Shown piece after piece: positions 3,650-56,451 of a DNA stretch of 64,000 nucleotides (position 1 is its first letter; each line of letters begins with the position of its first letter). The notes beneath the pieces are model-generated. The model saw only the letters and a program-made list of their open reading frames with translations, searched no databases and was not told where the DNA came from. The DNA comes from a virus (Duplodnaviria > Caudoviricetes). A program made the translations under genes and the position numbers. Location of the stretch: IMG/VR virus record IMGVR_UViG_3300016478_000063, positions 24,800-88,799 of that record. One strand, written 5' to 3'.

Positions 3650-5834
3650 CGGAGATTGGATTTGGGATGAAGAGGTGTATCCAAACGTCTATACTTGTGC
3701 AGTAGTTCATTCAAGTGGTCAGAACTTCCAAGTTTTTGAAATAAGTGACAGAAAGAATGATGTGCAAGAGCTTCTTGAATTTATGCGAGACATTAAGCGA
3801 AAAAATCATAGGCTTGTAGGTTTCAACTCGGTAAACTTTGACTATCCTGTACTTCATTATATTTTGAATAAATCAAAAGAATCGAAAAAGTCAAAAATCC
3901 ATTTAAAAATTTCAGCAAAGGAAATCTATGATGTTGGTATGAATCTTATTAAATCTCAGGATGACGAAGAGTCTAAGTCTAGGGCAATTAAGGAGTCAGA
4001 GGTTATAATTCCGCAACTTGATCTTTTTCTTGTACATCATTTTAACAATCGTGCAAGAGCAACATCTTTGAAGATGCTTGAGTTCAACATGAGGTCTGAT
4101 CAAATTGAAGACCTACCTTTCCCTGTTGGGAAACACCTGACCTCTGATGAAATTGATGTTTTGATTAAATACAACAAACATGATGTTCTGGAAACTTTAA
4201 AATTTTACAATGAATCAAGAGAAGCTATTGAGCTGCGTAACGAGCTTACTAAGCAGTTCGGTTTCGATTGCACAAACTATAATGATACCAAGATTGGCAA
4301 GCAACTTTTCATTGATCGTTTGGAGAAGGAGAACCCAGGATGCTGCTACAGTTACGGTAAATTTGGACGTAAAATCAATCAGACAAAGCGCGATAAAATC
4401 GTAATCAAGGACTGTTTGTTTGACTACATTGATTTCTCTAAGAATCGTCCAGAATTTCAAGCTGTACACCAATGGTTCAAACGTCAAATCATCACTGAAA
4501 CAAAAGGTGTGTTTACTGATCTTCTTGAACACAATCTTGGTGATGTTGCAAAATATGCTGAGATGAAAGTTAAGAAGATCAAGTTCAAAGCTGAACCGAG
4601 CCAACAGGAAATTGATGAAGTAAAGAAAGAGTTTCCTATGGGTTGGGTTGAGGTTACAGAACTAAAAGCAATGGAGGTTGTCAAAGACTCAGAAGGTAAA
4701 CCGATCAAAGAAGCCTATATTGACGAAAACGGTAAACAGAAACAGCGCAATGTGAAAGTTCCAAAGAAATCCTATCATTGGTGCTACAATATCGCTGAAA
4801 CTCTAAACGTAGTTATCAACGGTTTTCGATATGATTTTGGTGTTGGTGGTATTCATGGTGCTAAACAAGGGACTCACAAGTCTACAGAGAAACGTAAGCT
4901 ACGAACATTGGATGTTGCCAGCTACTATCCGAACATGGCAATCAGCAACAATGTTTATCCGAAGCACCTTGGGATGACATTTTGCAAAGTGTACAAGGAT
5001 TTGTACGTTGAACGTAAGAAACACGATAAAAAGTCAGCAGCAAACAAGGCTCTGAAGCTAGCTCTCAATGGGGTGTATGGCGATAGCAATAACGAGTTTA
5101 GTCCACTGTATGATCCAGCATATACCATGAGCATTACGATTGGTGGGCAGCTTTCACTTTGTATGCTGATGGGTGCTCTTGTGGATCACTGTGATGCTGA
5201 AATCATTATGTGTAACACTGATGGCTTTGAATATTTTGTTGATGTTGACAAGATTGAAAAAGCTGATAAGATTGTCAAACGATGGGAACAAGTGACTGGT
5301 CTTGAGATGGAAGGAGACACTTACTCTGTTATGTATGTTAGGGACGTAAATAATTACACTAGCATTACAGAATCAGGGAAGGTAAAGACCAAAGGTGCTT
5401 ATGAAGTGCTGCCTTACCGTGAGCTTGGATGGCATAAGAACCACTCAGCAATGGTTATTGCAATGGCTGTGCAAAAGGAGTTGCTTGGTGAATGTTCGGC
5501 AGAAGAGTTCATTCGTTCCCACAAAGATGCCTATGATTTTGTACTCAGAACAAAAGTACCTCGATCATCCAAGCTTTATCTGTGTTACGATGATGGACGT
5601 GAGGAACAGCAACAGAACATCTGTCGCTATTATCCAGCTTCAGAAGGTGGTAAGCTTGTTAAGCTAATGCCTCCACTTGAGGGTAGTGATGAATGGCGTA
5701 GACTTGGAATTGATACGGAGTGGGATGTTCTCACATGCAACAATATGAAGGATTTCAACTGGTCAAAGCTAAACTACGACTATTACATCACAGAAGCTCA
5801 GAAACTGATTGAAGGGGTGAAGAATGTATCATGA
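3630..5834 (+). CDS. DNA polymerase, family B, with 3'-5' exonuclease domain
   Basis: ExoI WDEEVY; motif A LDVASYYPN; motif B KLALNGVYG; motif C CNTDG; start ATG 3630 after GAGGAG. Confidence 0.88.
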   Translation: MGKNWSDGDWIWDEEVYPNVYTCAVVHSSGQNFQVFEISDRKNDVQELLEFMRDIKRKNHRLVGFNSVNFDYPVLHYILNKSKESKKSKIHLKISAKEIYDVGMNLIKSQDDEESKSRAIKESEVIIPQLDLFLVHHFNNRARATSLKMLEFNMRSDQIEDLPFPVGKHLTSDEIDVLIKYNKHDVLETLKFYNESREAIELRNELTKQFGFDCTNYNDTKIGKQLFIDRLEKENPGCCYSYGKFGRKINQTKRDKIVIKDCLFDYIDFSKNRPEFQAVHQWFKRQIITETKGVFTDLLEHNLGDVAKYAEMKVKKIKFKAEPSQQEIDEVKKEFPMGWVEVTELKAMEVVKDSEGKPIKEAYIDENGKQKQRNVKVPKKSYHWCYNIAETLNVVINGFRYDFGVGGIHGAKQGTHKSTEKRKLRTLDVASYYPNMAISNNVYPKHLGMTFCKVYKDLYVERKKHDKKSAANKALKLALNGVYGDSNNEFSPLYDPAYTMSITIGGQLSLCMLMGALVDHCDAEIIMCNTDGFEYFVDVDKIEKADKIVKRWEQVTGLEMEGDTYSVMYVRDVNNYTSITESGKVKTKGAYEVLPYRELGWHKNHSAMVIAMAVQKELLGECSAEEFIRSHKDAYDFVLRTKVPRSSKLYLCYDDGREEQQQNICRYYPASEGGKLVKLMPPLEGSDEWRRLGIDTEWDVLTCNNMKDFNWSKLNYDYYITEAQKLIEGVKNVS

Positions 5835-5852
5835 AAATATTTCAGAAAACAT

Positions 5853-5881
5853 TTGACAACCCCTGAAAATCGTGATTTAAT
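5853..5881 (+). promoter_or_regulatory. sigma70-like promoter
   Basis: TTGACA-17 bp-TTTAAT in the intergenic gap after the polymerase. Confidence 0.7.
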
Positions 5882-5929
5882 AGATGCCAAGCTTGATAGA
5901 CAAGCTTTAAATAAACAGAAGAGAGGAGA

Positions 5930-6142
5930 ATGATAATGAATATTGAAAATCTATCGGACATTGATGTTCTTGAGCTGTATAAGAAGAAGGCTTCTAGCCT
6001 ATCTTTTTACAATGCAGCAGAAGGGCAATCTTGGTACGAAGAACGACCTGCTCGTGAGCAATGTAAGAAGGAATTTACAGAGGTTGCGGCAGAGATTGAT
6101 AAGCGTGGTTTGGAAACCCCATCTGGTGATTATCTTATTTAA
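5930..6142 (+). CDS. hypothetical protein
   Basis: SD GAGGAG; 70 aa. Confidence 0.55.
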   Translation: MIMNIENLSDIDVLELYKKKASSLSFYNAAEGQSWYEERPAREQCKKEFTEVAAEIDKRGLETPSGDYLI

Positions 6143-23214: not shown

Positions 23215-25728
23215 CTAGTATGACACGTTGTTTGCAACAACTTTATTTGCACTTGGCGTAGGGTAGGTAGCAGTACCATCAATCACATTCCCTGTAACAG
23301 TAGCGTTTGTGATTTCGGCGTCAGTAAGGGTTACTACGCCCTTGATAAAATTATTTGCAAATACGCACGCTTTGATCAGATTGCTCGATGCAATTACGAA
23401 GCTACTTGTGGCGTCGGTTGCTTGCTGGATCAAATTTCCGACCGCAACCAACGTGCCGGTAAAACCGACTGCATTAAATACCCTAACAGCACCCCCTGTA
23501 ACACCAGCCAGATTATTCCAACTGAATTGGCAGTCATTCACTGTCGATAAAAGCTGGAAGCGCACCTCTCCTGTGTTCCCGTTAAAAACAACTTTTGCAG
23601 CCTGTGGGCGGAATAATTGATTATTTGGGTCAACTCTGAAGTTGCATCCAACAAAGCTGTTTACTGCGCCGTAAAAATCACGTGTCCCGGATGCAGCCGC
23701 GCCCGGATCAAAACTACAGTCGTTGAAGTAGAACGATCCGGTATTTGATGTCGTTCCCGTAAAAGCGAAATACTGCGTATTCCCTGGCTTAATCACAAAA
23801 CGAGAACCGACAGCGTACAGCGAGCCGTTTGCGAATTGCGCTAACCCGACAACTGTGCAGTTGTGCAGATGCACACGGTAGCCGTCCAAAATGTTTAATG
23901 AGCGCTGACTGTCCTGAGCAACAAGAATACAGTTGCTAACACGAATATCACCAGAGTCAAAAGCACCGTTTGTAACGTCAGATTCTGTCAGGATACCGCC
24001 GAACAACTGGCAGTTTTCAACCAGCACGTCTGCGTTGCCGACCGCTATTGCATATGCGACAACCGATGGCCGCATCTGGACAAGCGTGTTGCTGACGCGC
24101 AGCCCGCTCCCCTTGTTTCTAAAGGCGATCCCCCGGGGTGCAGCGCAATCGACCACAGAGCAGTTGGAGATTGTGATCTGGTCGGTGGTATCACCAAAAC
24201 CTGTATTAACCCGACCTAGCACAAACGCGCCGTCAAAGGCCGCACTTTGCGATACGCATCGGTCATAAACAATGTCGTATTCAAAGGCGGTGTGTAGTGT
24301 GTAAGACGCGCTCAACGTATTGCTATCGACGCAATCCGAGGCCGTGATATGCCATGCGACAGTGAAGTCCAAAGTGTGTCGGCATCGCGCACCAATGACA
24401 CGCTTTGCAGTCGAGTTGTAAACGTACTCAAACTGTAAAGCATATCCTTCACCACCGCCTGTTGCAGCAGGGTTTCTGCAATAAATGTCAGATACATGTG
24501 CGTTAAGAGCAAATTGAAATTTCACACCCTTAAACCAAAACCCGACAAAGGTGCAGTTTCTGGCGAAGCAGTTTGCTGTGTATTGGAAAAACACACCACC
24601 CATGCCGTTTGCGCGTGAAGTCTGCCCCGTAGCTACAAACTTGCAGTTTTCAATGCCCGACCCTTCAACTGCGTTGAGTTTAGTAACACTGACCGTTTCA
24701 GAGGCCGTAAGCGCCAAGCGGCGCGTCACATCAGTGGTAATCGTTGCGCCAGAGATCGCAGTAATACGTGCAGTGACGTTTACATAGAGTCCGGGCAGCG
24801 CGGCAGAAGCCGAATCAATCTGCACCACGTCACCAACAGCAAAACCGGCTGCGCTGGCAACAACCATGGCACTTGTGTACTCGGCAGCGTCGGCAGCAAC
24901 TGTCGTAGCGGTCGCTGACAAAGTACCCTTGAACTCAAAAACTCCAGTGTTCAGGCTGTCAAGCCCCGCCCCAGCCCAAATAATCGTGGCACCCTCGCCG
25001 TCGATTGTGAATCCTGAAATGTCTACATTGACCCGAGAAGTTAGCTTATAGGTTCGCCCAGCAAGTTTCAGGCCACGTTTACCACTCGCCTTGCAGTCGG
25101 CAATGGCAGCCACAAATTCCGCTGTGTCATCAGCAACGCCGTCACCAACGGCACCGTAATCCATAACGGAGGCCCAATCGTCGAGTTTTTCCGCGACAGT
25201 GCGCCCCATGTACCCCACCAACCCAGCCCCCTTCGATGGGTCGGTGGCGTTGGCAAGGTCATTCCTTAAAACATCTGTATAACCTTGAGCTTGACCTTCT
25301 ACAATGTCCAACTCCGCTTGTGTAGCAAAATCTTCTACATTCTGGAAGGCAGCAGTACCAAGAGAGGATAGAGTAAGTTCTACGGCATCTAAGCGAGAAT
25401 CAATCTCTGATGGGTTGTCAATTTTTACGGCAGATACGCCATTAAACTGATAGAAATCCCCGTTGCTTTTAATCTTAAAGATAAAAGACTTAGGACAAGG
25501 AGAGCTATACCAAACACTGTCAACACCGAAATAAAATCTATTATCTGCACTATTGAAGTGGGCAGCACCGTTAGACACTGGGGGTAAAGAAGCTACAATG
25601 CTGTCTACATTACCATCAAACATGAAAGAGAACTTTAGTAAGTTCTCATCCATGCCGGTATTCCAATTGTTCTCTCCGTAATTCCACCCGTATTTCCCTT
25701 CAAGAAAAGGGCTTTGTTGTTGAGGCAT
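23215..25728 (-). CDS. tailspike A (beta-helix depolymerase-like receptor-binding protein)
   Basis: VMDYGAVGDGVADDT pectate-lyase-like start and parallel beta-helix repeats; GC-rich after the DLANATDPSKG linker. Confidence 0.8.
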   Translation of the reverse strand: MPQQQSPFLEGKYGWNYGENNWNTGMDENLLKFSFMFDGNVDSIVASLPPVSNGAAHFNSADNRFYFGVDSVWYSSPCPKSFIFKIKSNGDFYQFNGVSAVKIDNPSEIDSRLDAVELTLSSLGTAAFQNVEDFATQAELDIVEGQAQGYTDVLRNDLANATDPSKGAGLVGYMGRTVAEKLDDWASVMDYGAVGDGVADDTAEFVAAIADCKASGKRGLKLAGRTYKLTSRVNVDISGFTIDGEGATIIWAGAGLDSLNTGVFEFKGTLSATATTVAADAAEYTSAMVVASAAGFAVGDVVQIDSASAALPGLYVNVTARITAISGATITTDVTRRLALTASETVSVTKLNAVEGSGIENCKFVATGQTSRANGMGGVFFQYTANCFARNCTFVGFWFKGVKFQFALNAHVSDIYCRNPAATGGGEGYALQFEYVYNSTAKRVIGARCRHTLDFTVAWHITASDCVDSNTLSASYTLHTAFEYDIVYDRCVSQSAAFDGAFVLGRVNTGFGDTTDQITISNCSVVDCAAPRGIAFRNKGSGLRVSNTLVQMRPSVVAYAIAVGNADVLVENCQLFGGILTESDVTNGAFDSGDIRVSNCILVAQDSQRSLNILDGYRVHLHNCTVVGLAQFANGSLYAVGSRFVIKPGNTQYFAFTGTTSNTGSFYFNDCSFDPGAAASGTRDFYGAVNSFVGCNFRVDPNNQLFRPQAAKVVFNGNTGEVRFQLLSTVNDCQFSWNNLAGVTGGAVRVFNAVGFTGTLVAVGNLIQQATDATSSFVIASSNLIKACVFANNFIKGVVTLTDAEITNATVTGNVIDGTATYPTPSANKVVANNVSY
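25226..25260 (-). repeat. tailspike 5' module-junction repeat, copy 1
   Basis: 30/35 nt identical to 29312-29346; encodes DLANATDPSKG; marks the AT-to-GC transition. Confidence 0.8.
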
Positions 25729-35917: not shown

Positions 35918-38900
35918 TATTGTCCTCCAGAATATCCGTAAGATGTGAGGGTTTGCTGTAGTTTGTCATCCAGCATTTTTACAAAGCTGTTAGCAACATC
36001 CTCTGTCTTCTCTGCTGTAATGTTAGCGTCAAGTTTAACTTCAACCTTCATAACACCAGGAAGTTTTGTACCATAAGCATCCATGTTCCGCTGCATCATA
36101 GACTCCTGAGCCATGTTTTTAGCATTCTCATCGTACATCTCAGGTGTCCAGCCATACATCCCGCTGGAAGGATTATTAAGAGCATTACGCTTCTTTTGTT
36201 CTTGATCAAAAGGTTTTAACCCGGTACTAGCTGTATTCGCTAAAGGATCATAACCCAAGCCTCTGCCGATCATTCCAGCAGGACCGTTACGAATACCAAT
36301 AGAAAGGGCTTGCTTTAACCCTTCGCCCGCACCAGAAAAATCCCCACTGGCCAGTTTGTTTATAGACTGTAAGGTGATCAGAAGGGAGGTTTGTATCTCT
36401 TTGAGTGTATTCAGTACAGTCTGGAGTGCTCCTGATTCTTTGAAAAGATCGAAAAGCATCTTCCATCCTTCATAGGATTTGACCCTAAGCTCTCCAACTT
36501 CTTTAAGAATATCTCTGATGTTAAACATCATTTGCATGATTGTTTCACCAGTCTCTCCTTGACCAAACAACCACTTCTGAAAGTTGCTATCCCTCCCATC
36601 AAACATACGTCCAATAGATTGAGGTAAAAGAACCATCTGCCTAAAGAAGTAAGTTCCTTTATCAAACATCTCTCCGAGATTAGGCATTATTCTATCCATT
36701 TCTCGCATAGCGTCAGTTGCTGTACGCCACAAACGAGCAAAGCCTGTTTCACCACCAGCTTTAGAAAAGCTCTCTAACATCTGAGTTTGCATATTCTGTG
36801 AACGGGCTTGTTCCGCGATAGATGATTTCTTCATAACATCAATCTTGGGCGCTGCGCGTTCACTTAGGATTCTTGCAACAATAGGGAGAATTTTAGCTGA
36901 TTCAATGTTCCCTTTTTCAATATCCTCATAGAATTTGGCATGAGCTTCTTGTCCAACCAACCCGCTACCTGTCATTTCTGCATAGGACTCTGCGAATACG
37001 TCCATCGTCGTTTATGTTCAGGGAGGGGCGTTAATCCCTCCCCCGCTTTATTCAAGCTGCTTATGCTTTCACATAAGACCAGATCATATCACAATCCTAA
37101 AATATAGGATTCCTACCGTTTCGCTTCACTTGAAGCTACGTCCGAAGACTGATCGTTGAACGTTACCCTTAAATGTTTAAAAGTCTTCCCAGCTTTGATA
37201 TTACTTACAGTGTGTCTATTAACACGTGGATGATTCATGCAGTCAACAATATCTGTTATCGAAAGGTTGTTCTCGATAAGTTCTAATATTTTAAGAACAA
37301 GATCATCAGTAATTTTAGGCTTAGTTTTACTAAAATTAAAATCTTTTGAAACCTCTTGCCACGTTCTGCGAGATTTAACAGAATAAACTACAGAAAGATT
37401 TACACCAGTTTTTCTGGATATTTCTCTGCAATTAAAACCATCAACAAGCATTTGGCAGACAGTCATTATCTCACCATTGGTATAGGTTGAAACAAAAGCA
37501 TCTTCTGCTTTTGGGAAATTTCCTGCCTCTACCCCATGAGTTGAGTTTTCTTGTGCTGTAACCCATTCTAAGTTACCAATAGAATTGTTAGTTCTATTAG
37601 AATCTATGTGATTCACGAAAGGTTTGTTTGAGGGGTTTGGTACAAAGACCAGTGCTACAGCCCTGTGGACATATATTCCACGAAGCTTAGAACCATCCCA
37701 AACTTTACAACGAAAATAACCGTCTTTATCTTTAAAAGGTTTATAAATACTTTTAGTAAAGCTACTACGAATCTGCCCAAGCTCATTCACTTCTGCAAAT
37801 TCATAATTTGGAACAACATAAAACATTTCGACCTCCTTGGTTAAAGAAGATCGGGTCTTCGCTGCGGATTACCCAATCTTGATTTCTTAAATCGCAAGTG
37901 TACCACACTTTTAAGAAAATGCAAGCTCTAAGGGCTTTCCCGCAATTAGATAGGTTTGCTATCACCATTACTGGCGAAAGGGGCTACAAATTAACCCGGC
38001 ATTGATTCGGCCATCTGCCGCCGCACTTCCTCCATACTAAGGACACCTTTCGTTTATGTTCAAGGGTGGTCGTTAATCACCCCCCGCTTTATTCAAGCTG
38101 CTACATGTTTCCATGCAGACCAGACCATATCTTCACTTAAAATCAGTGCCTACCGTTTCGCTTCACTTGAAGCTACTCTACTCCATTCAGATAAATCTGT
38201 GTTTCGATGGTCGTTGGGGGCGAGGCGTTTTATGCCTATCCCTGCTGATTGCCCAATTCTTCCGATTGTTACTGCCTTTAGGCTAGTACGAAAGACTCTA
38301 AGGGGTTTCCAGCATATTGTAGGTTTTAGTTGAGCTGTTATGTTAACCCAACATCTGCGAGAGGGCGTTTTGTACTAACTTACGTCTTGCTGGAGTTACA
38401 CCCATTGCAGTTTGGTACTCAGAGAAGCCTTTAAAAATATCTTGACTCTGCTCTACACCAAGACCCGCACCCAGTGAGTTTGAAAGGAATTGGTTGTAAT
38501 CTGGCAAGGCTTCCATGTAGTTGAAACCAACGTCATTAGCCAAACCAAACAACCACTTATTAGCATCAACACCTTGCTGCGTACTGTACCCCTTAGCTGC
38601 TAACACAGCTTGAGTTGTAAGTTGTCCAGAGATTAGTTCTTGGTTTGCTGTGTTCAATGAACCAAGACCATAAACACCACCAACAAAAGGAAGGCTTGCT
38701 ACACCATAACGAGCAAGAGCACCGCCAGCACCGCCAGCATGTAGGAAATTAGCTCTTGAAAAAGAAGAATCACTTCTTGTTTGTTTTGTTGTAGCCGAGC
38801 CTACTGCTTGCTTCACTGGTGCCATTCGGGGTGTCAAGCTGACTTGCTTATTAGCTTGGTTAATTGCTTGCCTGATTGCGGAAGAGACTTGACCGGCGAG

Positions 38901-42446: not shown

Positions 42447-44818
42447 TCACACACGGGCTACGCCACGGATGATGACTTTACGAACCGAGCCTGCAAGCCG
42501 GAACGCGATAAGGAAGTCACCCATCAGCCGTTGAGCACGTTGAACTTCTGGAATTGCCAGAGGATCAGGAGCTACTACCGTATATGGAGTGTCGTCAGCA
42601 ATACCACCATTAGCCACGCCTTGACTCATGACAGTGCGAATGTCATTTTCAATAATTGTGGCCCCGGTGCGCGTGAATGGGATTTTTTTCACATTAACCA
42701 TGCGGAAAAACACAGATTCTTCCAAACGAGTGATCAGCCACAGGATGAATACTGATTCCGTTTATGTTCACACAAGATCGTTACTCTTGTACTGCTTTAG
42801 GTTTCGTTGTCCACCCATTTTTATTTCCTTTGCACCAGCTCTCAACAATGTAAGGCTCTACATTACCGTAATACTTTGCTGCAAAGATAGGGCTTTCAAA
42901 CTCTAAACCTTCTGGAGATATGAATATACTTTTACTTCTTGAAGAGGTCATGTGCAGGAACTCTTCATTTCTTTCTGCATTTATAATCAAAGAGTCACTA
43001 AACTCTCTTGAAACCTGTTTCTTCTTTTCTGCGCTCGCTTGCACTGCTTTAAGCATCTGAGCATACCCTTTCTCAGTGGCTCTGTATTCAATCATTTGAG
43101 CGCGTTTAATTTCCTTCCATTCCTCAGAACGTTTTTGACCTGTCCACGCTTCTCTTGCAAGTTTTGCATACTCTTTGATAAGACCAGAGGAAACTTTATA
43201 ATCGTTTAGCTCTTTAAGTTTCCTTTGCCGCTCTGGTGTGTTAGCAAGCAACCTTATCCTTTCTAATAAACCAGACTCAACATTAGCTAAACCTCTAGCT
43301 ACCTTCTGATCCACTGTTTGTCCACGCATCATTACCCAAGCCATATAGTCAGACGCCCTTTTATACGCCTTCCACAACAACCTGTGTGCAAAAACATGCT
43401 GTCTGTAATCTAACCTTATAAGGTTTTCTTTTGAATCATCGCCTCCTGCATGGCGAGGAATGATGTGGTGGACTTCTGTATAAGTTCCTTCATCAAACAC
43501 TTGATTCTTGTATTTTTCTATAAATGCAAAATAAAGTTTTTCGTAATTCATTGTATCTCCAAGCTACTTACGCTTTCACGTAAGACCAGACTATATCTTC
43601 ACCTTTCTTTTCAAGTTAAGGTGCTCCCCATTTCGCCTCACTTGAGGCTACGGCATCACTGCCTAGTCGTTGAACCTTCCCCTCATCAGGGCTTGGCTGC
43701 TGATTGCCACATAATATGTTGTTTTCAAACATTCACGCTTAACTATATCTCAAGTTTACGTTGTAGTCAACATATCTTCGCGGGTTTCCAGCAATTAAAG
43801 GAGTTATTCAAAAGTCATTTCTGACTTAGGCGACTTGTTTCAAATCGATAGGAGCACCACTAACCATGTTACCATCTTGGAAAACTTCAACACCAGCTTT
43901 ACGGGTATAGAAGTTGCAGTTTTTACTACGCAGGTTAGTTTTCTGAGTCTCGGTTAGACGATCAACAGTAATACCAGTTGCAGTTTTTAGGTTCCAATCA
44001 TTAGAACCCGGAACTTCTGGGAGTTGGCTACCAATCCACGCACATTCAGGGTACTGAGTGGCTGCATTCTTACTGTAGATAAGGAATGTCTGGTCATAGT
44101 TAAGATCACTAAGAGCCGTGGCTACGTCAGTGATTTGAGTGGTAGGAACATCTGCATCAGCAGTTGCGGCACCATAAATCTTACGGCGAGCTTGAATGGC
44201 AGCAGCAATCTCAAGAATGTCAGCTTTAACGCGAGTCTCGGTAGTCAAAGCAAACCACTGATCATTTACATCTTCAACAGCATCAATCGTGTCTGTCCAA
44301 GTCTCTGTAGGTGCCGCATCTTGCTTAACAAGGTTAGAAGATACTCGTACTGACCAATCGCTACCCGGAGTAGCAGGAGCAATAGTAAGACTGCCGGTGT
44401 TGTCTGTTACGTTAATACCTGCAACAGTACCAATAGTCAGATCAAGACCAGTTGCAATTTCATCTGCTGTAGCATTGGCATCTGAAGTGTAGCTATAGTC
44501 CACTTCATTGATGGTTACAACATAGGTTGCATTATTAGCCACTGTTGGTGTGATAGTGACGCTATCAACTTGGCGACGGCCTACTACAACAGAAGCAGGT
44601 TTTAGTTCTTGACCAAATAAGGTCTGAACCATTTTATATACAACATCTGAACTATCGAAATCTTCTGCAATACCTGTAATACTTGTGTATACACGAGCAC
44701 GCTCAGGGAAGTTTGTAAACGCAGCCATTACACATGGAATGTCAAAGCTGGCTGTATCAATAGCAGACGTTTGTTTGTCGATAAATACCTCGACAACATC
44801 TGACAAGTTATTTGCCAT
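42447..44818 (-). CDS. tail sheath protein, two exons: 44818-43844 and 42758-42447 (428 aa spliced)
   Basis: Joining gives GAPID|ESVFILWLITRLEESVF, the conserved sheath ID..W motif, then KIPFTRTG; exons of 975 and 312 nt are in frame. Confidence 0.9.
42781..43551 (-). CDS. intron-encoded HNH homing endonuclease (MobE-like N-terminus)
   Basis: EVHHIIPRHAGGDDSKENLIRL..RQHVFAHRLLWKAY. Confidence 0.85.
   Translation of the reverse strand: MNYEKLYFAFIEKYKNQVFDEGTYTEVHHIIPRHAGGDDSKENLIRLDYRQHVFAHRLLWKAYKRASDYMAWVMMRGQTVDQKVARGLANVESGLLERIRLLANTPERQRKLKELNDYKVSSGLIKEYAKLAREAWTGQKRSEEWKEIKRAQMIEYRATEKGYAQMLKAVQASAEKKKQVSREFSDSLIINAERNEEFLHMTSSRSKSIFISPEGLEFESPIFAAKYYGNVEPYIVESWCKGNKNGWTTKPKAVQE
43742..43770 (-). 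promoter_or_regulatory. promoter inside the P5 extension of the sheath intron
   Basis: TTGACT-17 bp-TATAGT. Confidence 0.65.
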
Positions 44819-45392: not shown

Positions 45393-45878
45393 TTATAAGT
45401 CACGGCCATCAGCCACTCGATATTCAACAGAATCCAGCATCTTGCCTGTATCAATCAGAGGATTGTTCACGCCACCTTTCAATTCGATAGTTCTTTCTGC
45501 GTTCATTGGGATAGACCACATTTCAATTTCTTTCTGCATGATCTGAACAAAAACAGGGCCGAGTTTGTGATACAACTGGTTCCAAGACATTTGACCAAGA
45601 GCAACAGCACTAACCATCCCTTTTACTTGAGGGGTGATCCATTCAAGTTTTTCAATGTTTTTAATCATGAAGCCAGCACGCATGAATGGACGCATTGGAG
45701 GACCAAGCCCTTCTTCTTGAATCTTAGCAACGTAGGCTACAGGAAGGTTGTCATTTTCAGGGCCATAGTATTCATCAAAGAACCCAACATCCAAGGACTT
45801 GTAATTCCCTTTAAGTAGATTCTTTTTCATGGAATCCCAAACACGAGTATCTTTGATAAAGCCTGAGTTTCTTGCCAT
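45393..45878 (-). CDS. neck/tail completion protein
   Basis: VGFFDEYY...VAYVAKIQEEG...PPMRPFMR...NPLIDTGKMLDSVEYRV. Confidence 0.7.
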   Translation of the reverse strand: MARNSGFIKDTRVWDSMKKNLLKGNYKSLDVGFFDEYYGPENDNLPVAYVAKIQEEGLGPPMRPFMRAGFMIKNIEKLEWITPQVKGMVSAVALGQMSWNQLYHKLGPVFVQIMQKEIEMWSIPMNAERTIELKGGVNNPLIDTGKMLDSVEYRVADGRDL

Positions 45879-45889
45879 ATCAAATCCTC

Positions 45890-46261
45890 TTAGTTAGGTG
45901 TGCGTGGCTCTCTGGCAGCCATTGCACGATAATGGTCAAGAGTTCCCATCTGGTAACGCCTAACCTTCATCACTCGATACCAATCACCATTCCATTGAAA
46001 GCGATCTGCATCCCAACCCCCTGTACCTTCCTTAGTAGCTTTAATCTCAGAAACAGAGTAGATTTTGTACCACTCCTTGCTACGCTCAGATTCAGGGAAC
46101 AGCATGAGTTCTTCGTCTTTTACAGGTTGGATGTTTGCTTGGATAACTACATCTGATGTAGTAGCGTCTTGCCATACACCATCAACATAGCCACCTACTG
46201 TGGATGGTCTTTTAAGTGTGAGAGGGATTGTTTTGGTTAAGAGAAACTGTGGTTGTAGCAT
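45890..46261 (-). CDS. head closure/stopper protein
   Basis: G.YVDGVW...IQANIQP...L..PESER...D.FQWNG.WYRV. Confidence 0.65.
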   Translation of the reverse strand: MLQPQFLLTKTIPLTLKRPSTVGGYVDGVWQDATTSDVVIQANIQPVKDEELMLFPESERSKEWYKIYSVSEIKATKEGTGGWDADRFQWNGDWYRVMKVRRYQMGTLDHYRAMAAREPRTPN

Positions 46262-46274
46262 CTACCAAATCTCC

Positions 46275-46385
46275 TTAACACCCACAGGTATTTGAATTGA
46301 ATGGATCAGAATAAAATAAACCACTCCCATCACAAACTCTTACTCTTGTTAGAGAAGGACGAACATTATCTGGATTATTGTTATT
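46275..46385 (-). pseudogene. orphaned 3' end of the head-tail adaptor gene (not in ORF track)
   Basis: NNNNPDNVRPSLTRVRVCDGSGLFYSDPFNSNTCGC* versus the adaptor's NNANPDNIRPELTKIRVCSIDKTFFGC*; followed directly by the RBS of the next gene. Confidence 0.85.
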
Positions 46386-47397
46386 AGAACAAACACTTCT
46401 CTTCATGTTCTTTATACCTCTCATATTTTCTTTTTAGTTTAAAGTCAGAGTCTTCGTAAAGAATAGAAAGAATAGTCAATGCTTTTGAACCATAAACACC
46501 AATACGGTACAGGTCATTCCCTTTACTTTTAATTATTTTTGGAAGTTTTTCAAAAGTTACAAGGTTTTTACAAAAGTCTAAAAACTGCTCACAAATTATA
46601 GAACTTCCGCACAGAGTGACACAGGTAGTATTCTTAGGGTGACCAACATGGCCATCACCATCAATCACACCGCGCCAAAAGTGACGGTCGCTTAAAAATT
46701 CTTCGGGACAGACTTCCTTCATGGATTTTCTTGGAGTAAGACCTAAACTTCGTAAATCTGAAGATATATCATCGGATTTAAAATGCAATCTTGAGGATAG
46801 ATAAGTCTTTCCTGTCCTGCTGTCGAACCTAGAGTAATCTTTCACTTCATTCTTGAGGCACAGGAAATTCCTCAGTTCTTCAAGAATGTGTCGGTCGGTT
46901 TGCTTGAGTCTTATCTCAACAGTACCGTCATCCCATAGACAACCATCGGTTAGTAGTAATCCGTAGAAGTAAGACCTTTGCTCGGACGGTACACTAAAAG
47001 CTGCGTTATTCAGTCCGAATACAGCCTTCATTTTAATACCGAGGTTTGTATCCTTCCCAAACTTATTATGCAGTAAAGCAAGTACAGATTTGTAGTCTAT
47101 TTCTAACTTACTAGCTATCTCTGTAGAATTATACCCACTCTCCCACAAAGAGAGTATTTCTGGGAACAAAGACTCATGAATATTTCTAGAAAGTCTTTTA
47201 GTGTCAAGACGAAAATCTAAGAACCTTTCAAATATGTATGTATGAGGAACAGCAAAGTCTTTAGCTATACTTTGGAGTGTCTCGCCATCTCTGTACCTTA
47301 AATAACAACTCATCAACCAAGTTTCGCCGCCTAGCGCCTCAAATCTTGGTTTTGCCTTCTTACTGATTCCGACGTAACTTTTAACTTTGTATCCCAT
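46384..47397 (-). CDS. free-standing double-motif LAGLIDADG endonuclease
   Basis: YFYGLLLTDGCL and HFWRGVIDGDGHV motifs; N-terminal HTH repeats. Confidence 0.85.
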   Translation of the reverse strand: MGYKVKSYVGISKKAKPRFEALGGETWLMSCYLRYRDGETLQSIAKDFAVPHTYIFERFLDFRLDTKRLSRNIHESLFPEILSLWESGYNSTEIASKLEIDYKSVLALLHNKFGKDTNLGIKMKAVFGLNNAAFSVPSEQRSYFYGLLLTDGCLWDDGTVEIRLKQTDRHILEELRNFLCLKNEVKDYSRFDSRTGKTYLSSRLHFKSDDISSDLRSLGLTPRKSMKEVCPEEFLSDRHFWRGVIDGDGHVGHPKNTTCVTLCGSSIICEQFLDFCKNLVTFEKLPKIIKSKGNDLYRIGVYGSKALTILSILYEDSDFKLKRKYERYKEHEEKCLF

Positions 47398-47422
47398 TCA
47401 CAACCCCTTCTTTAAATATTAG

Positions 47423-47451
47423 ACATTAACAGCCAAAGAAGGTTTTGTCAA
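47423..47451 (-). promoter_or_regulatory. sigma70 promoter encoded in the adaptor's replacement 3' end
   Basis: TTGACA-17 bp-TAATGT; spacer CCTTCTTT pairs with the SD region AAAGAAGG. Confidence 0.6.
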
Positions 47452-47845
47452 TAGAGCATACTCTAATTTTAGTAAGTTCTGGACGGATGTTATCAGGATT
47501 AGCGTTGTTGGCTTCCCAATCAATTTTACTAATCCCAGCAGCATATGGCATAAGACCATTTGGCAGTGTTGCAGAACTTGTATCTTTAATTAGATTCTCA
47601 AGAGCTTTTAGGTATTGCGTAGAGAGATTTGACCATATTTCGATGTCACCTACCCTCTCGCGCGATGTCCAACCAGCTAACTGCATAGAAGCAGCAATAG
47701 CAGCAAGCCTTGCAGCTTGCATAACATTCCCACCAGTCATATCTAGGAATGCTTGAATTTCATTGTCTGTGAACAGTTGATAAAAAGGGCTACCTTCTGT
47801 ATCACCAATGAGCACCCTCACCTTTTCCACATCAGTCAATGCCAT
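47426..47845 (-). CDS. head-tail adaptor (head completion) protein
   Basis: VRVLIGDT...LFTDNEIQAFL...; position after the major capsid gene. Confidence 0.7.
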   Translation of the reverse strand: MALTDVEKVRVLIGDTEGSPFYQLFTDNEIQAFLDMTGGNVMQAARLAAIAASMQLAGWTSRERVGDIEIWSNLSTQYLKALENLIKDTSSATLPNGLMPYAAGISKIDWEANNANPDNIRPELTKIRVCSIDKTFFGC

Positions 47846-48794
47846 GATATTTCTCCAAATATACTTGATATTTTCTGGACAGTTTGTAATTACACTCTTT
47901 GTAAATTTCGTCCAGAATTTTCTTTATTTGGTATTTGGAGGAAACATAACCCACATGCATTTTTCCATTCAGTGTAACCTTTGGTGTGTACTCCGGGCAA
48001 ATTGTTGCACAGTAACAAGCAAATGACTCTGCTAATTCTTTTCCGCCGCATACCTCAAGTCTGAATGAATTTTTAGCAATGTGGCCGTCGCCTTCAATAA
48101 CTCCTCGCCAAAAATGTCTGTTGAATGCTAGTTGTTCAGGACATTTTTCGTTTAAGGATTTTTTAGCATCAAACCCAAAAGCTTTAAGTCTTTCGAGAAT
48201 GGTTGCATGGGAGAATGCAAAAGAACTTTGGTGGTAAGTATTCCCTGTCCTGCTATCTACTCTAGACCTTCTACGAATTGTATTAGAACTTTGTAAGTAG
48301 TTCTTAAGATTTAGTAAAATCTCTTCATCTTGCGATGATAATTCAAGAGAAACCGATTTTTTAGAAAGACAACCATCGGTCAGCAGCCATCCATAAAAAT
48401 AAGCGCACGCTTCCTCATTTACATCAGAAAAAGCTTCTTCGTTGATAGTATATCCTTTATAGAATTTAATATCTTCCTTGCTGCGTATTTCAACACCTCT
48501 TTTACGAAGTATCGTAAACGCAGTATCTTTGGAACAAGGTAAATCTTTACATATAGCAGGAACAGATTCACCGGACAGATACCTTAACTCAAGGCTATCA
48601 ATTTCAGATTGTGATAGAATACAAAAATCTTTCTGGAAAGAGAACCCAACTTTTTTCATTTGCCAAGACAAGGCTGCTGGTTTTACTCCAAGAATTTCTG
48701 CAATTTCATTTCTGCGTTTACCTTCACTGGAAAGCTTCTTAACTAACTCAGTGTCAATGAGGATACGAATTTTTTCAATATCTGTTAAAGCCAT
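47832..48794 (-). CDS. free-standing LAGLIDADG endonuclease fused to the old adaptor N-terminus
   Basis: YFYGWLLTDGCL and HFWRGVIEGDGHI motifs; begins MALTDIEKIRILIDTE versus the adaptor's MALTDVEKVRVLIGDTE. Confidence 0.87.
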   Translation of the reverse strand: MALTDIEKIRILIDTELVKKLSSEGKRRNEIAEILGVKPAALSWQMKKVGFSFQKDFCILSQSEIDSLELRYLSGESVPAICKDLPCSKDTAFTILRKRGVEIRSKEDIKFYKGYTINEEAFSDVNEEACAYFYGWLLTDGCLSKKSVSLELSSQDEEILLNLKNYLQSSNTIRRRSRVDSRTGNTYHQSSFAFSHATILERLKAFGFDAKKSLNEKCPEQLAFNRHFWRGVIEGDGHIAKNSFRLEVCGGKELAESFACYCATICPEYTPKVTLNGKMHVGYVSSKYQIKKILDEIYKECNYKLSRKYQVYLEKYHGID

Positions 48795-48814
48795 TAGGGA
48801 CTCCTTTATTACTT

Positions 48815-48840
48815 AAAGGATGGGGGAAACAAGTTCCCCC
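48815..48840 (-). terminator. hairpin after the major capsid gene
   Basis: GGGGGAAC/TTTCCCCC stem with weak U tract. Confidence 0.45.
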
Positions 48841-48857
48841 TCTCCCATTTAGCTCAA

Positions 48858-49895
48858 TTAGCCAGTGTAGCCACGTACCACGAGCTGAGGACGACGAATC
48901 ACGTTAATGAAGTTCGACTCAGATTGTAGCAGGATTTCGGTATCAGTTTGGTTGCGATATTCGAAAGCGTATGCTTCCATACCGATGGTATTGGTGAATT
49001 CAAAACGGTTGGCTGGGCCAAAGTAGGTTTTGAAGACTTCATCAGTACCAACTGGAACAAAGTAAGCATCGTTTGCAGGAATGAAACGCTGACCCAGTGG
49101 ATCGAAACCACGATATTCCATGAAGCGGATAGCACCATGAACGAACTCACGGTCAAGACCCTGAGCATTACCCATACCACGACCACCACGACGCAGAGGC
49201 TCTTGAGTGCTTACGTAGTATTGATACGCAGTAGCAACAGAAGGATGGGAGATCAGCTTGGTGAAGAACTCAGGGGAGCACAGGGCAACCACTTCGTTGA
49301 TAACGTCACCAGTAAAAGCGTTGTCTTGGATATGGGCAACTACTTCTTCAATCTTAGACAGCACGTTAGTGGTGTTGGTATCAAGATCAAAGTCCACTTC
49401 TTTACGGACAACAGAGAAGTCAGTGTAGAAGTTACCGGCGATGGTGCCGTTAGGGGCATAAATATCACCAGTAGTCAGAGTACGGACACGGGCAGTTTCC
49501 AGAGTTTGTGCATGGGAACGACGAATACGCTCCAGCTTACGGGCACGAACTTGATCTAGAACTTCTGGTACGCCTGCACCGGCACCACCGTAGGCGCTCT
49601 TACCTTGAATATCTTCAGGCTTGATAGCGTCATCGTATGGAAAGTGAGGAACAGGATAAGAACGGATTAGGCGGGTGTAATCCTTGCCTACGTTGTTACG
49701 CTCGCCACGAGGACGATCACCAATCAGACCAATAGACTGGTTGATTTGTTCGAAGGTTACAGTATTGGTGGCAACGCCTTCAGCTTGGAACAGGCCCATA
49801 GCCTGAATCTTACCGTACTGGTTAGGAACAATTAGAAGTTCCTGAGTCCAGTCCGCAATGTTAAAGGGATTGGTAAAGTCTCTTACGATTGGCAT
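48858..49895 (-). CDS. major capsid protein (lambda gpE-like, HK97 fold)
   Basis: PHFPYDDAIKPEDIQG...LERIRRSHAQTLE...QSESNFINVIRRPQLVV; high CGT/GGT codon bias. Confidence 0.9.
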   Translation of the reverse strand: MPIVRDFTNPFNIADWTQELLIVPNQYGKIQAMGLFQAEGVATNTVTFEQINQSIGLIGDRPRGERNNVGKDYTRLIRSYPVPHFPYDDAIKPEDIQGKSAYGGAGAGVPEVLDQVRARKLERIRRSHAQTLETARVRTLTTGDIYAPNGTIAGNFYTDFSVVRKEVDFDLDTNTTNVLSKIEEVVAHIQDNAFTGDVINEVVALCSPEFFTKLISHPSVATAYQYYVSTQEPLRRGGRGMGNAQGLDREFVHGAIRFMEYRGFDPLGQRFIPANDAYFVPVGTDEVFKTYFGPANRFEFTNTIGMEAYAFEYRNQTDTEILLQSESNFINVIRRPQLVVRGYTG

Positions 49896-55429: not shown

Positions 55430-56451
55430 TAAACCTCCTTCGTGATTTTGTACTCTTCTTCCCAAGAATCGCGTTGAGCTGCTGCTTGTTCAAAAGTTTT
55501 AAACTGCTTAGTAAGATATTTACCGTTCACGTCCATCCGAGCAACATATATCTGCCTACGTTTATCGTATTTCACTCCCACCTTCCCACAAATCCCTTTA
55601 GGTTCTCTTGGAAATTTATACATTGTTTTAGAGGCTTCTACTTTAGTAACCCACATACAATTATCTTTACTGAAATCCCCAAGAGGGTTTAGTCTAATTA
55701 GTTGTAAGTTATCAGGCTTCTCACCCATATCTTCAACAAAATTATCAACTCCATCCTCTCCTAACCACCTTTCGCAAACCTCAATACCGTATTTAACGAA
55801 GTTGTGATTAGATTTGTGGGACTCACTATAACAGCGGTAAAGCATGTTACGGTAGGCTTCGTAAGTTTTTCGGGAGTAGCTCCATTTTCTGTTGGCTTTT
55901 GAAGTCTGATCTTTGTGAAAACAACCACAAGACTTGGTGTCACCTGATTGCAATGCGCCTACCATCACTGATGTTTCGTTACCACAATCACAAACACAGT
56001 CCCATCTGGCTTTTCTTTGACCATTAGGGAAGTGATGCCATGAGTACGTGTCTTTGACTACAAGTCTACCAAATCTCTTACCAGATAGATCAATATGTCT
56101 TGTTTCACCATAACCGGCACCCTCTGTACGAAGTGAGCGTTGGAAAGAATACTCTTCTTTAATCTTTGCAAGAACTTTTGTCGGTAAGAATTTACCATAC
56201 TCTCTTGTATTGGCCATCATGTGAGCGGCGTTTGTTAAACCAAGATGCTTTGGATACGCTTTCCAAAGCAATATATGTGCAATGATATGCTCTCGTGCGG
56301 TAAACATCACAAGATTATCATCTTCATCACTGCCGCCTAAACAGCGTGGAACAATATGATGCTTCTCAAAGTAACCTTCAAGAATAGATTTATCCAAGCC
56401 TCTAACTTTACACTTTTCTACTAATCGGTCATAAACCTTTTTATAATCCAT
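55429..56451 (-). CDS. composite HNH homing endonuclease (intact N-terminal HNH, degenerate second HNH, AP2)
   Basis: EKHHIVPRCLGGSDEDDNLV; DLSGKRFGRL..CDCG..KSCGC..LIRLNPLGDFSKDNCMW; GKVGVKYDKRR. Confidence 0.8.
   Translation of the reverse strand: MDYKKVYDRLVEKCKVRGLDKSILEGYFEKHHIVPRCLGGSDEDDNLVMFTAREHIIAHILLWKAYPKHLGLTNAAHMMANTREYGKFLPTKVLAKIKEEYSFQRSLRTEGAGYGETRHIDLSGKRFGRLVVKDTYSWHHFPNGQRKARWDCVCDCGNETSVMVGALQSGDTKSCGCFHKDQTSKANRKWSYSRKTYEAYRNMLYRCYSESHKSNHNFVKYGIEVCERWLGEDGVDNFVEDMGEKPDNLQLIRLNPLGDFSKDNCMWVTKVEASKTMYKFPREPKGICGKVGVKYDKRRQIYVARMDVNGKYLTKQFKTFEQAAAQRDSWEEEYKITKEV

Follow-up and report, generated by a model that had tools for sequence, protein, structure and literature searches.

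A 64,000-nucleotide (nt) stretch of viral DNA (positions 24,800 to 88,799 of the IMG/VR virus record IMGVR_UViG_3300016478_000063; Duplodnaviria, Caudoviricetes), hereafter the window, contains a head-to-tail adaptor gene that lies between two genes for LAGLIDADG nucleases, and copies of both ends of the adaptor gene were found on the far sides of these nucleases. Very probably, two paralogous LAGLIDADG cassettes carrying spare gene ends invaded this single adaptor coding sequence. Every gene in the stretch from capsid to head completion lies on the minus strand, and the order of transcription is the capsid gene, a native adaptor start of 13 codons that is fused in frame to nuclease 1, the working adaptor gene, nuclease 2, a stranded native adaptor tail, and the head completion gene. 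The two displaced pieces are referred to as the orphan start and the orphan tail, and the imports containing nuclease 1 and nuclease 2 as cassettes 1 and 2. The source record is 88.8 kb long, metagenome-derived, and rated complete.

The initial annotation had described the adaptor gene as a chimera with two imported ends, and both orphans were recovered on the minus strand at the positions that it gave. Its residue counts were reproduced as well. At the N end, the open reading frame (ORF) of nuclease 1 and the adaptor start shared 13 of 16 residues with one gap, and 8 of the 12 identical non-Met residues were encoded by different codons; the orphan start and the current adaptor start were identical in 27 of 39 nt. 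At the C end, ORF 46275-46424 matched the adaptor tail in 12 of 17 residues (7 of 12 recoded) and in 34 of 51 nt. When the adaptor was used as a query against the entire genome of the phage, the tail copy was recovered (E 1.2e-5), and in a targeted comparison of the upstream with the downstream sequence the tail pair had an E value of 1.3e-8 and the start pair one of 5.7e-6. A generic upstream-versus-downstream repeat screen was flooded by low-complexity matches in GC-rich loci and was applied to adaptor-linked loci only. The end duplications are not due to chance. The replacement ends differed from the orphans at approximately 31-33% of bases and shared no long identical run with them. The initial annotation was cautious about the synonymous differences, and this caution stands: divergence of the donor could yield the pattern as well as selection for immunity.

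The captured start had been put at 16 codons. It is a piece of the native adaptor, as claimed, with a length of most likely 13 codons. Free-standing nuclease 1 homologues start with a different conserved N-terminus, into which the three residues behind codon 13 fit, and the Gly codon that comes next in every adaptor is absent from the nuclease 1 fusion. The junction of nuclease 1 would thus precede the invariant Gly of the LIGD motif by one codon.

The relatives used for comparison, referred to by locus numbers, are metagenomic contigs (several of them short), apart from Pseudomonas phage vB_PsaM_M1 (filed under Ounavirinae), which is the nearest cultured relative at the adaptor locus. A megablast search of the 4.1-kb region against cultured phages gave no match, and relatives there were recognized at the protein level only. 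In vB_PsaM_M1 and in 16 of the 18 IMG/VR loci, the capsid gene was followed directly by an adaptor gene of 140-148 codons, with no nuclease; a small head-fibre gene sometimes accompanied the capsid gene in these nuclease-free loci. The remaining two consisted of an adaptor fragment without upstream sequence and of L015, which contained a nuclease 1 homologue. For the part of the tail that starts at the NPDN motif, the orphan was a better-scoring match than the current tail in 14 of the 16 relatives lacking nuclease 2. The short current tail type was confined to neighbours of nuclease 2 homologues, namely the window, L024, L027, and L028.

Scans of IMG/VR for relatives of nuclease 2 gave no match, and L024 was found through a larger protein index. 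This 27-kb contig encodes a capsid protein that is 87% identical to that of the window and a nuclease 2 that is 77% identical, and its gene order is capsid, adaptor, nuclease 2, orphan tail, and head completion, without nuclease 1. The start of its working adaptor was identical to the orphan start of the window in 13 of 13 residues and 34 of 39 nt and was preceded by the same ribosome-binding site, in comparison with 24 of 39 nt for the current adaptor start of the window. The replacement tail of L024 differed from that of the window by 15 nt changes and 1 amino acid change over 33 codons. The right-hand junction was also shared, with 4 extra bases relative to the nuclease-free sequence; because of these bases, the stop of nuclease 2 falls in another frame of the orphan, and the last 5-7 codons of nuclease 2 and its stop consist of orphan-derived DNA read in that frame. 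L032, an independent assembly, carries the nuclease 1 fusion with the same junction and a 93% identical protein. These relatives show that the two imports were separate events, cassette 2 before cassette 1: nuclease 2 entered first and nuclease 1 second, because L024 has nuclease 2 and a stranded tail without nuclease 1, and L032 shares the nuclease 1 fusion. The termini of relatives lacking the nucleases had been set beforehand as the refuting test, and they were of the orphan type and not of the current type, at the start in L024 and at the tail in the 14 relatives mentioned above. The interpretation of the adaptor as a chimera is therefore supported.

The extent of the imported DNA was estimated from the same comparisons. 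Adaptor codons 1-29 differed from L024 at 29 of 87 nt and codons 30-52 at 1 of 69 nt; approximately 87 bases arrived with nuclease 1, because the divergence stops after codon 29. The window and L024 departed from all relatives without nuclease 2 right after the conserved G-I-S codons, and because of the position of this departure codons 107-139 are the replaced 3' part. Between the window and L032, the identity was 77% in the capsid 3' end, approximately 90% in nuclease 1, and 100% over the first 55 nt of the new adaptor start; cassette 1 shows signs of recent horizontal movement.

Compared with L024, the body of the adaptor gene is also a mosaic. The low divergence of codons 30-52 (47690-47758) is far under the genome background of 19%, and codons 53-80 (47606-47689) differed at 28 of 84 nt with 9 amino acid changes; both variants of the latter patch were found among nuclease-free relatives. 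This mosaic suggests a further recombination tract that is unconnected with either nuclease. In addition, the orphan starts of L032 (186-230) and of the window (48750-48794) were identical in their first 31 nt and differed at 8 of 18 nt in codons 9-14, mostly synonymously, while the cassettes were otherwise approximately 90% identical. These differences could be a junction-side hotspot or the result of homing into different recipient alleles.

Both arrangements recurred in other phages. Homologues of nuclease 1 (39-77% identical) were in every case the gene just before the adaptor, the stop codon of the one overlapping the start codon of the other (L015, L026, L029, L030, and L033). Adaptor codons were fused in frame to the nuclease in L029 (approximately 6 codons) and L030 (14 codons). 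L015 contained approximately 14-16 orphan adaptor codons in the nuclease frame that were closed by a stop, and L026 contained 19 orphan codons, equivalent to the same motif, with a stop and a distinct ribosome-binding site behind them; no orphan start was present in L033. In terms of adaptor codons, the orphan starts broke off after approximately codon 6 in L029, 14 in L030 and L026, and 16 in L015. Orphan starts were thus in the nuclease frame at 4 of 5 independent junctions, for which our arithmetic gives a chance probability of approximately 0.045. At positions 4136-4183 of L015, the 14-codon orphan start ends in a TAA stop that is followed by a same-frame TTG opening the nuclease ORF, an arrangement that may be a former fusion interrupted by a nonsense codon or a throttle on the translation of the nuclease.

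Homologues of nuclease 2, on the other side, lay directly downstream of the adaptor gene. L027 and L028 had such a homologue and the same short adaptor tail type, with no orphan. The homologue in L025 was 45% identical, next to an adaptor only 36% identical to that of the window, and the nuclease ended in an orphan tail fused in frame, which started a few codons before the same conserved motif. A metagenome scan with a nuclease 2 profile recovered 80 mostly distant LAGLIDADG loci, 8 of which (one duplicating L025) had an adjoining adaptor gene. No significant orphan start was detected in six distant adaptor-linked loci. A short sequence recurring behind the capsid stop of L040, L042, and L043 may be an eroded orphan, but it scored under the shuffled 95% level. 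Because both arrangements recur at the same two sites in distant phages, the nucleases appear to represent two site-specific lineages that travelled with the adaptor gene across a wide phage clade. Because they recur across both nuclease families, insertion with a spare end appears to be a systematic mode rather than a one-off accident.

These observations are best explained by the following mechanism. Cassette 2 is made up of a replacement adaptor 3' end (codons 107-139 and the stop), a ribosome-binding site, and nuclease 2, and is inserted right after the G-I-S codons, with the native tail stranded behind nuclease 2. Cassette 1 is made up of nuclease 1, whose own first codons were lost, and a replacement adaptor 5' end, and is inserted after native codon 13, such that the native ribosome-binding site and 13 codons now start nuclease 1. 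Each enzyme is predicted to cut adaptor alleles without its cassette near the insertion point, nuclease 1 at the conserved LIGD codons and nuclease 2 in the stretch that immediately precedes the NPDN codons. In mixed infections, a cassette-bearing genome would then serve as the template for repair of the break, with homology provided by the orphan on the outer side and by the adaptor body on the inner side. Divergence of the replacement end would allow it to escape cutting and would block deletion of the nuclease through the repeats. The first insertion beside a different neighbouring gene would have required one illegitimate join, which would have created the orphan. The gene order beside the adaptor differed among these phages: neck and then head completion follow the adaptor in L004-L014, L027, and L028, and head completion and then neck in the window, L024, L009, and L001. 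A flank that is not shared may force illegitimate joins, and hence orphans, when cassettes cross between sub-groups. L029 contains an extra HNH gene of 257 codons (5246-6019) between the head-completion and neck genes, such that two nucleases bracket its adaptor and head completion genes.

Several observations weigh against this account. L012 and L014, both without nuclease 2, have short tails of their own that are slightly nearer to the current type. L033 and several more distant loci contain a nuclease with no detected orphan. The three residues after the 13 native codons may belong to the adaptor rather than to the nuclease. Nuclease 2 has diverged from its counterpart in L024 (73% nt identity) to the same degree as the flanks, and therefore nothing indicates present mobility of cassette 2. 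The orphan tail has a ratio of non-synonymous to synonymous divergence (dN/dS) of approximately 0.05, although a dead remnant would not be expected to have such a low value. In the comparison of the window with L024, this tail had 15.5 synonymous differences in 26 sites (approximately 59%) and 5.5 non-synonymous differences in 91 (approximately 6%), and the non-synonymous deficit has a probability of approximately 3e-7 under neutrality, as calculated here from the counts. Its frame is open in both genomes, with both ATGs at the same positions.

One explanation for the intact orphan is repeated homing into working alleles that had already diverged, each orphan being young; the shared junction is compatible with repeated homing, being located within the donor arm. 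Alternatively, the orphan may be translated and under selection. Extended to both ends, this alternative would make the stranded pieces working parts, with the cassettes or the phage depending on the old-end peptide or on translational coupling, which is possible but rather unlikely. If true, the in-frame orphan start would tie translation of the nuclease to the signals of a late structural gene. In a distant relative, the orphan tail would be read by the ribosome as the C-terminus of its nuclease. No slippery site leading from the nuclease 2 frame into the orphan frame was seen on reading the junction.

Two separate invasions by cassettes with spare ends also had to be weighed against a single illegitimate event, in which a block of nuclease 1, a foreign adaptor, and nuclease 2 replaced the middle of the native gene and the whole present gene is foreign. 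Such an event would account for the mirror symmetry of the locus, in which the outer end of each nuclease, on the side of the orphan, is truncated or fused, but L024 has nuclease 2, the same right-hand junction, and the same tail, yet a native start and no nuclease 1. The near identity of codons 30-52 with L024 further indicates that the gene body is shared with a lineage that lacks nuclease 1, and a single block is improbable. A tandem duplication of the adaptor gene, with free-standing nucleases settling between the copies and the outer copies decaying to stubs, is less probable still. Direct repeats of gene pieces do flank the nucleases as it would predict, but the stubs are exactly complementary (codons 1-13 upstream and approximately the last 40 downstream), abut or overlap the nuclease ORFs, and are intact rather than eroded. 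Moreover, no relative with two or three full adaptor copies was found among 30 loci, and the junctions lie at the same conserved codons in phages whose adaptors are 36-60% identical.

In the structural genes of phages, most homing endonucleases are carried by introns, as in the sheath gene of this genome; the nucleases could accordingly reside in self-splicing introns or inteins, with the orphans as true exons or exteins. Against this, an Rfam search over 45500-49500 gave no match at E ≤ 1, in comparison with 99.3 bits for the sheath intron with the same tool. No splicing is needed to complete the adaptor ORF, which has both ends duplicated and is not interrupted; the pieces are parted by stops and frame changes, and the adaptor stop precedes nuclease 2. 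Pfam gave LAGLIDADG and helix-turn-helix matches only, with no intein domain, and the nuclease 1 stop overlaps the adaptor start, all of which makes introns or inteins very improbable. Equally improbable is an assembly artefact that merged two co-occurring strains into a chimeric contig, as might be suspected from the metagenomic origin of the record and from an odd inverted capsid copy in the related IMG/VR locus L006, since the same junctions occur in independent assemblies from other samples (the nuclease 1 fusion in L032, and nuclease 2 with the orphan tail in L024) and the repeats, only approximately 67-69% identical, are too dissimilar to mislead an assembler. The inverted second copy in L006 (5454-6547) comprises the capsid and decoration genes right after the adaptor and looks like an assembly fold-back.

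Both nucleases matched Pfam PF14528 (28.7 bits for nuclease 1 and 29.5 bits for nuclease 2; curated cut-off of 22.5) and phrog_4645, annotated as 'endonuclease' (E 4.9e-33 and 1e-39, respectively). They are the only LAGLIDADG genes in the genome and were 41% identical over residues 121-330, the catalytic half, in agreement with the initial annotation that they are paralogous. In an alignment of 26 sequences that included both, Asp-Gly 140-141 and Gly-Asp-Gly 235-237 (nuclease 1 numbering) were invariant, as was the acidic residue closing each LAGLIDADG helix. An AlphaFold model of nuclease 1 (predicted local distance difference test, pLDDT, of 89) contained two N-terminal helix-turn-helix units followed by a double LAGLIDADG fold, with the expected alpha-beta-beta-alpha-beta-beta-alpha arrangement in two domains, and Foldseek matched it with a probability of 1.00 to the TliVMA intein endonuclease, I-AniI, bI3 maturase, I-SceI, and I-DmoI. 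These results place both enzymes in the family of monomeric double-motif LAGLIDADG homing endonucleases. Neither has a close solved relative by sequence. Nothing in either gene suggests decay, and activity is predicted for both. The support for the predicted site-specific cleavage of alleles without the nuclease gene is positional, namely insertions at the same conserved codons in distant phages.

The middle gene had no match in Pfam, and its PHROG family, phrog_1732, carries no name. A profile of 16 adaptor relatives matched 24 chains in two PDB entries (11bp_M/9zbs, 'Head to Tail protein gp72') with an E value of 1e-20, and the gene is placed between the capsid and head-completion genes, as in relatives, which identifies it as a phage head-to-tail adaptor. 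Its 139-codon ORF is intact, with a dN/dS of approximately 0.1 in comparison with L024. An AlphaFold model of the adaptor (pLDDT 63) was too weak and was left unused. The adaptor and nuclease 1 ORFs overlap by 14 nt at the adaptor start and the nuclease 1 stop, and the adaptor ribosome-binding site lies within the 3' end of nuclease 1; a 28-nt spacer with a second ribosome-binding site separates the adaptor from nuclease 2, and the ribosome-binding site of the head completion gene sits in the last bases of the orphan tail. A promoter and terminator scan gave nothing exceeding the shuffled expectation. The features are listed in Table 1.

Table 1. Features of the adaptor locus and the sheath gene, in window coordinates and in order of transcription.
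Feature	Position	Strand	Remarks
Major capsid protein gene	48858-49895	-	Left flank; Pfam PF03864, E 2.4e-63; 81% nt identity to L024
Native capsid-adaptor spacer, 63 nt	48795-48857	-	GC hairpin and native adaptor ribosome-binding site; 97% identical to L032
Native adaptor ribosome-binding site AAGGAG	48801-48806	-	Sequence and spacing as before the working L024 adaptor
Orphan N end (probable native adaptor codons 1-13), from which the nuclease 1 ORF now starts	48756-48794	-	
Nuclease 1, 320 amino acids, double-motif LAGLIDADG	47832-48794	-	In-frame fusion with the orphan start
Working head-to-tail adaptor, chimeric, 139 amino acids	47426-47845	-	phrog_1732, E 6.9e-28
Imported adaptor 5' end, codons 1-29	47759-47845	-	
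Replacement adaptor 3' end, codons 107-139 and stop	47426-47527	-	Short tail type
Nuclease 2, 337 amino acids, double-motif LAGLIDADG	46384-47397	-	Own ribosome-binding site
Orphan C end, approximately 40 native adaptor codons and native stop	46275-46397	-	81% nt identity to the L024 orphan
Open ORF enclosing the orphan C end, 49 codons (43 from the second ATG at 46406)	46275-46424	-	Conserved in L024
Head completion protein gene	45890-46261	-	Right flank; phrog_939, E 7.2e-28
Tail sheath gene split by a group I intron	42450-44818	-	Exons 44818-43844 and 42758-42450

The same genome offers a first comparison. The intron of the tail sheath gene was matched over its full length by Rfam RF00028 (99.3 bits, 43567-43853) and carries an HNH ORF of 256 codons (42781-43551), and in the vB_PsaM_M1 sheath protein the two exons correspond to residues 1-335 and 336-438, without overlap or duplication. 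Like the adaptor cassettes, it represents a selfish nuclease gene in an essential structural gene. The intron avoids damage by RNA splicing, whereas the adaptor cassettes would do so at the DNA level with spare ends. Further HNH matches were found at 37542-37673 and 56305-56391 (minus strand) and at two places elsewhere in the record; among them, a frame of 251 codons contained an HNH_3 match (41.5 bits) and a frame of 354 codons an HNH match (20 bits, slightly below the cut-off). The phage seems to be rich in selfish nucleases.

Phage genomes are tightly packed, and introns and inteins are the accepted routes by which homing endonucleases enter a coding sequence without killing the gene. The adaptor locus points to a third route in phages, in which the cassette brings a spare gene end, here at both ends of one small essential gene. 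Together with its relatives, the locus displays natural before, half-way, and after states, gives predicted cut sites for two uncharacterized LAGLIDADG lineages, and offers a testable account of mosaic ends in structural genes. It also holds a warning for annotation: the nuclease 1 ORF opens with what are probably 13 residues of another protein, and small ORFs beside nucleases may be stranded gene ends. The Seg and Mob endonucleases of T-even phages are free-standing, without intron or intein, and lie beside conserved genes; in mixed infection they are preferentially inherited and co-convert flanking markers (intronless homing). Their genes sit between other genes and are not known to leave duplicated gene ends. 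L033, L027, and L028 resemble this free-standing form, whereas the cassettes of the window lie inside the coding sequence, with replacement of its ends.

In the passages searched of Barth et al. (2023; PMC10448857), homing endonuclease gene (HEG) islands are described as nuclease genes that bracket essential phage genes at recombination boundaries. The adaptor locus is similar to what those passages describe, as two homing endonuclease genes flank an essential morphogenesis gene, and nt identity changes sharply at their borders. The paper reports free-standing, intron-borne, and intein-borne nucleases, and the passages searched do not mention duplicated or replaced gene ends. No phage report of cassettes with spare ends was found in the literature searched, the coverage of which was incomplete.

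The closest counterpart was found in fungal mitochondria, in which mobile-ORF (mORF) gene hybrids contain an endonuclease ORF (LAGLIDADG or GIY-YIG) inside a protein gene (PMC3630166). The cases include atp6 of Allomyces macrogynus; atp6, atp9, cox2, and nad3 of Glomus; atp9 of Rhizopus; and cox2 of Mortierella. In these hybrids, a foreign C-terminal segment in phase restores the ORF, and the stranded native segment resembles close relatives better (PMC3630166). Cassette 2 and the in-frame form in L025 match this description point for point: the features by which such hybrids are recognized, namely insertion within the gene, a spare end in phase, and a stranded native end nearer to relatives, were all found here. 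Presence/absence polymorphism and horizontal spread, which also characterize mORFs, were seen for cassette 1, with no such sign for cassette 2. The mORF hybrids concern respiratory genes of organelles, whereas the present case concerns a structural gene of a bacteriophage and, unlike them, one gene of 139 codons that was struck at both ends by paralogous enzymes. Cassette 1 is a mirror image, in which the start of the gene is replaced and the nuclease takes over the ribosome-binding site and first codons of its target; PMC3630166 describes C-terminal cases only. The adaptor cassettes are thus the phage counterpart of the mORF gene hybrids, with the addition of a mirror-image form that replaces the start of the gene.

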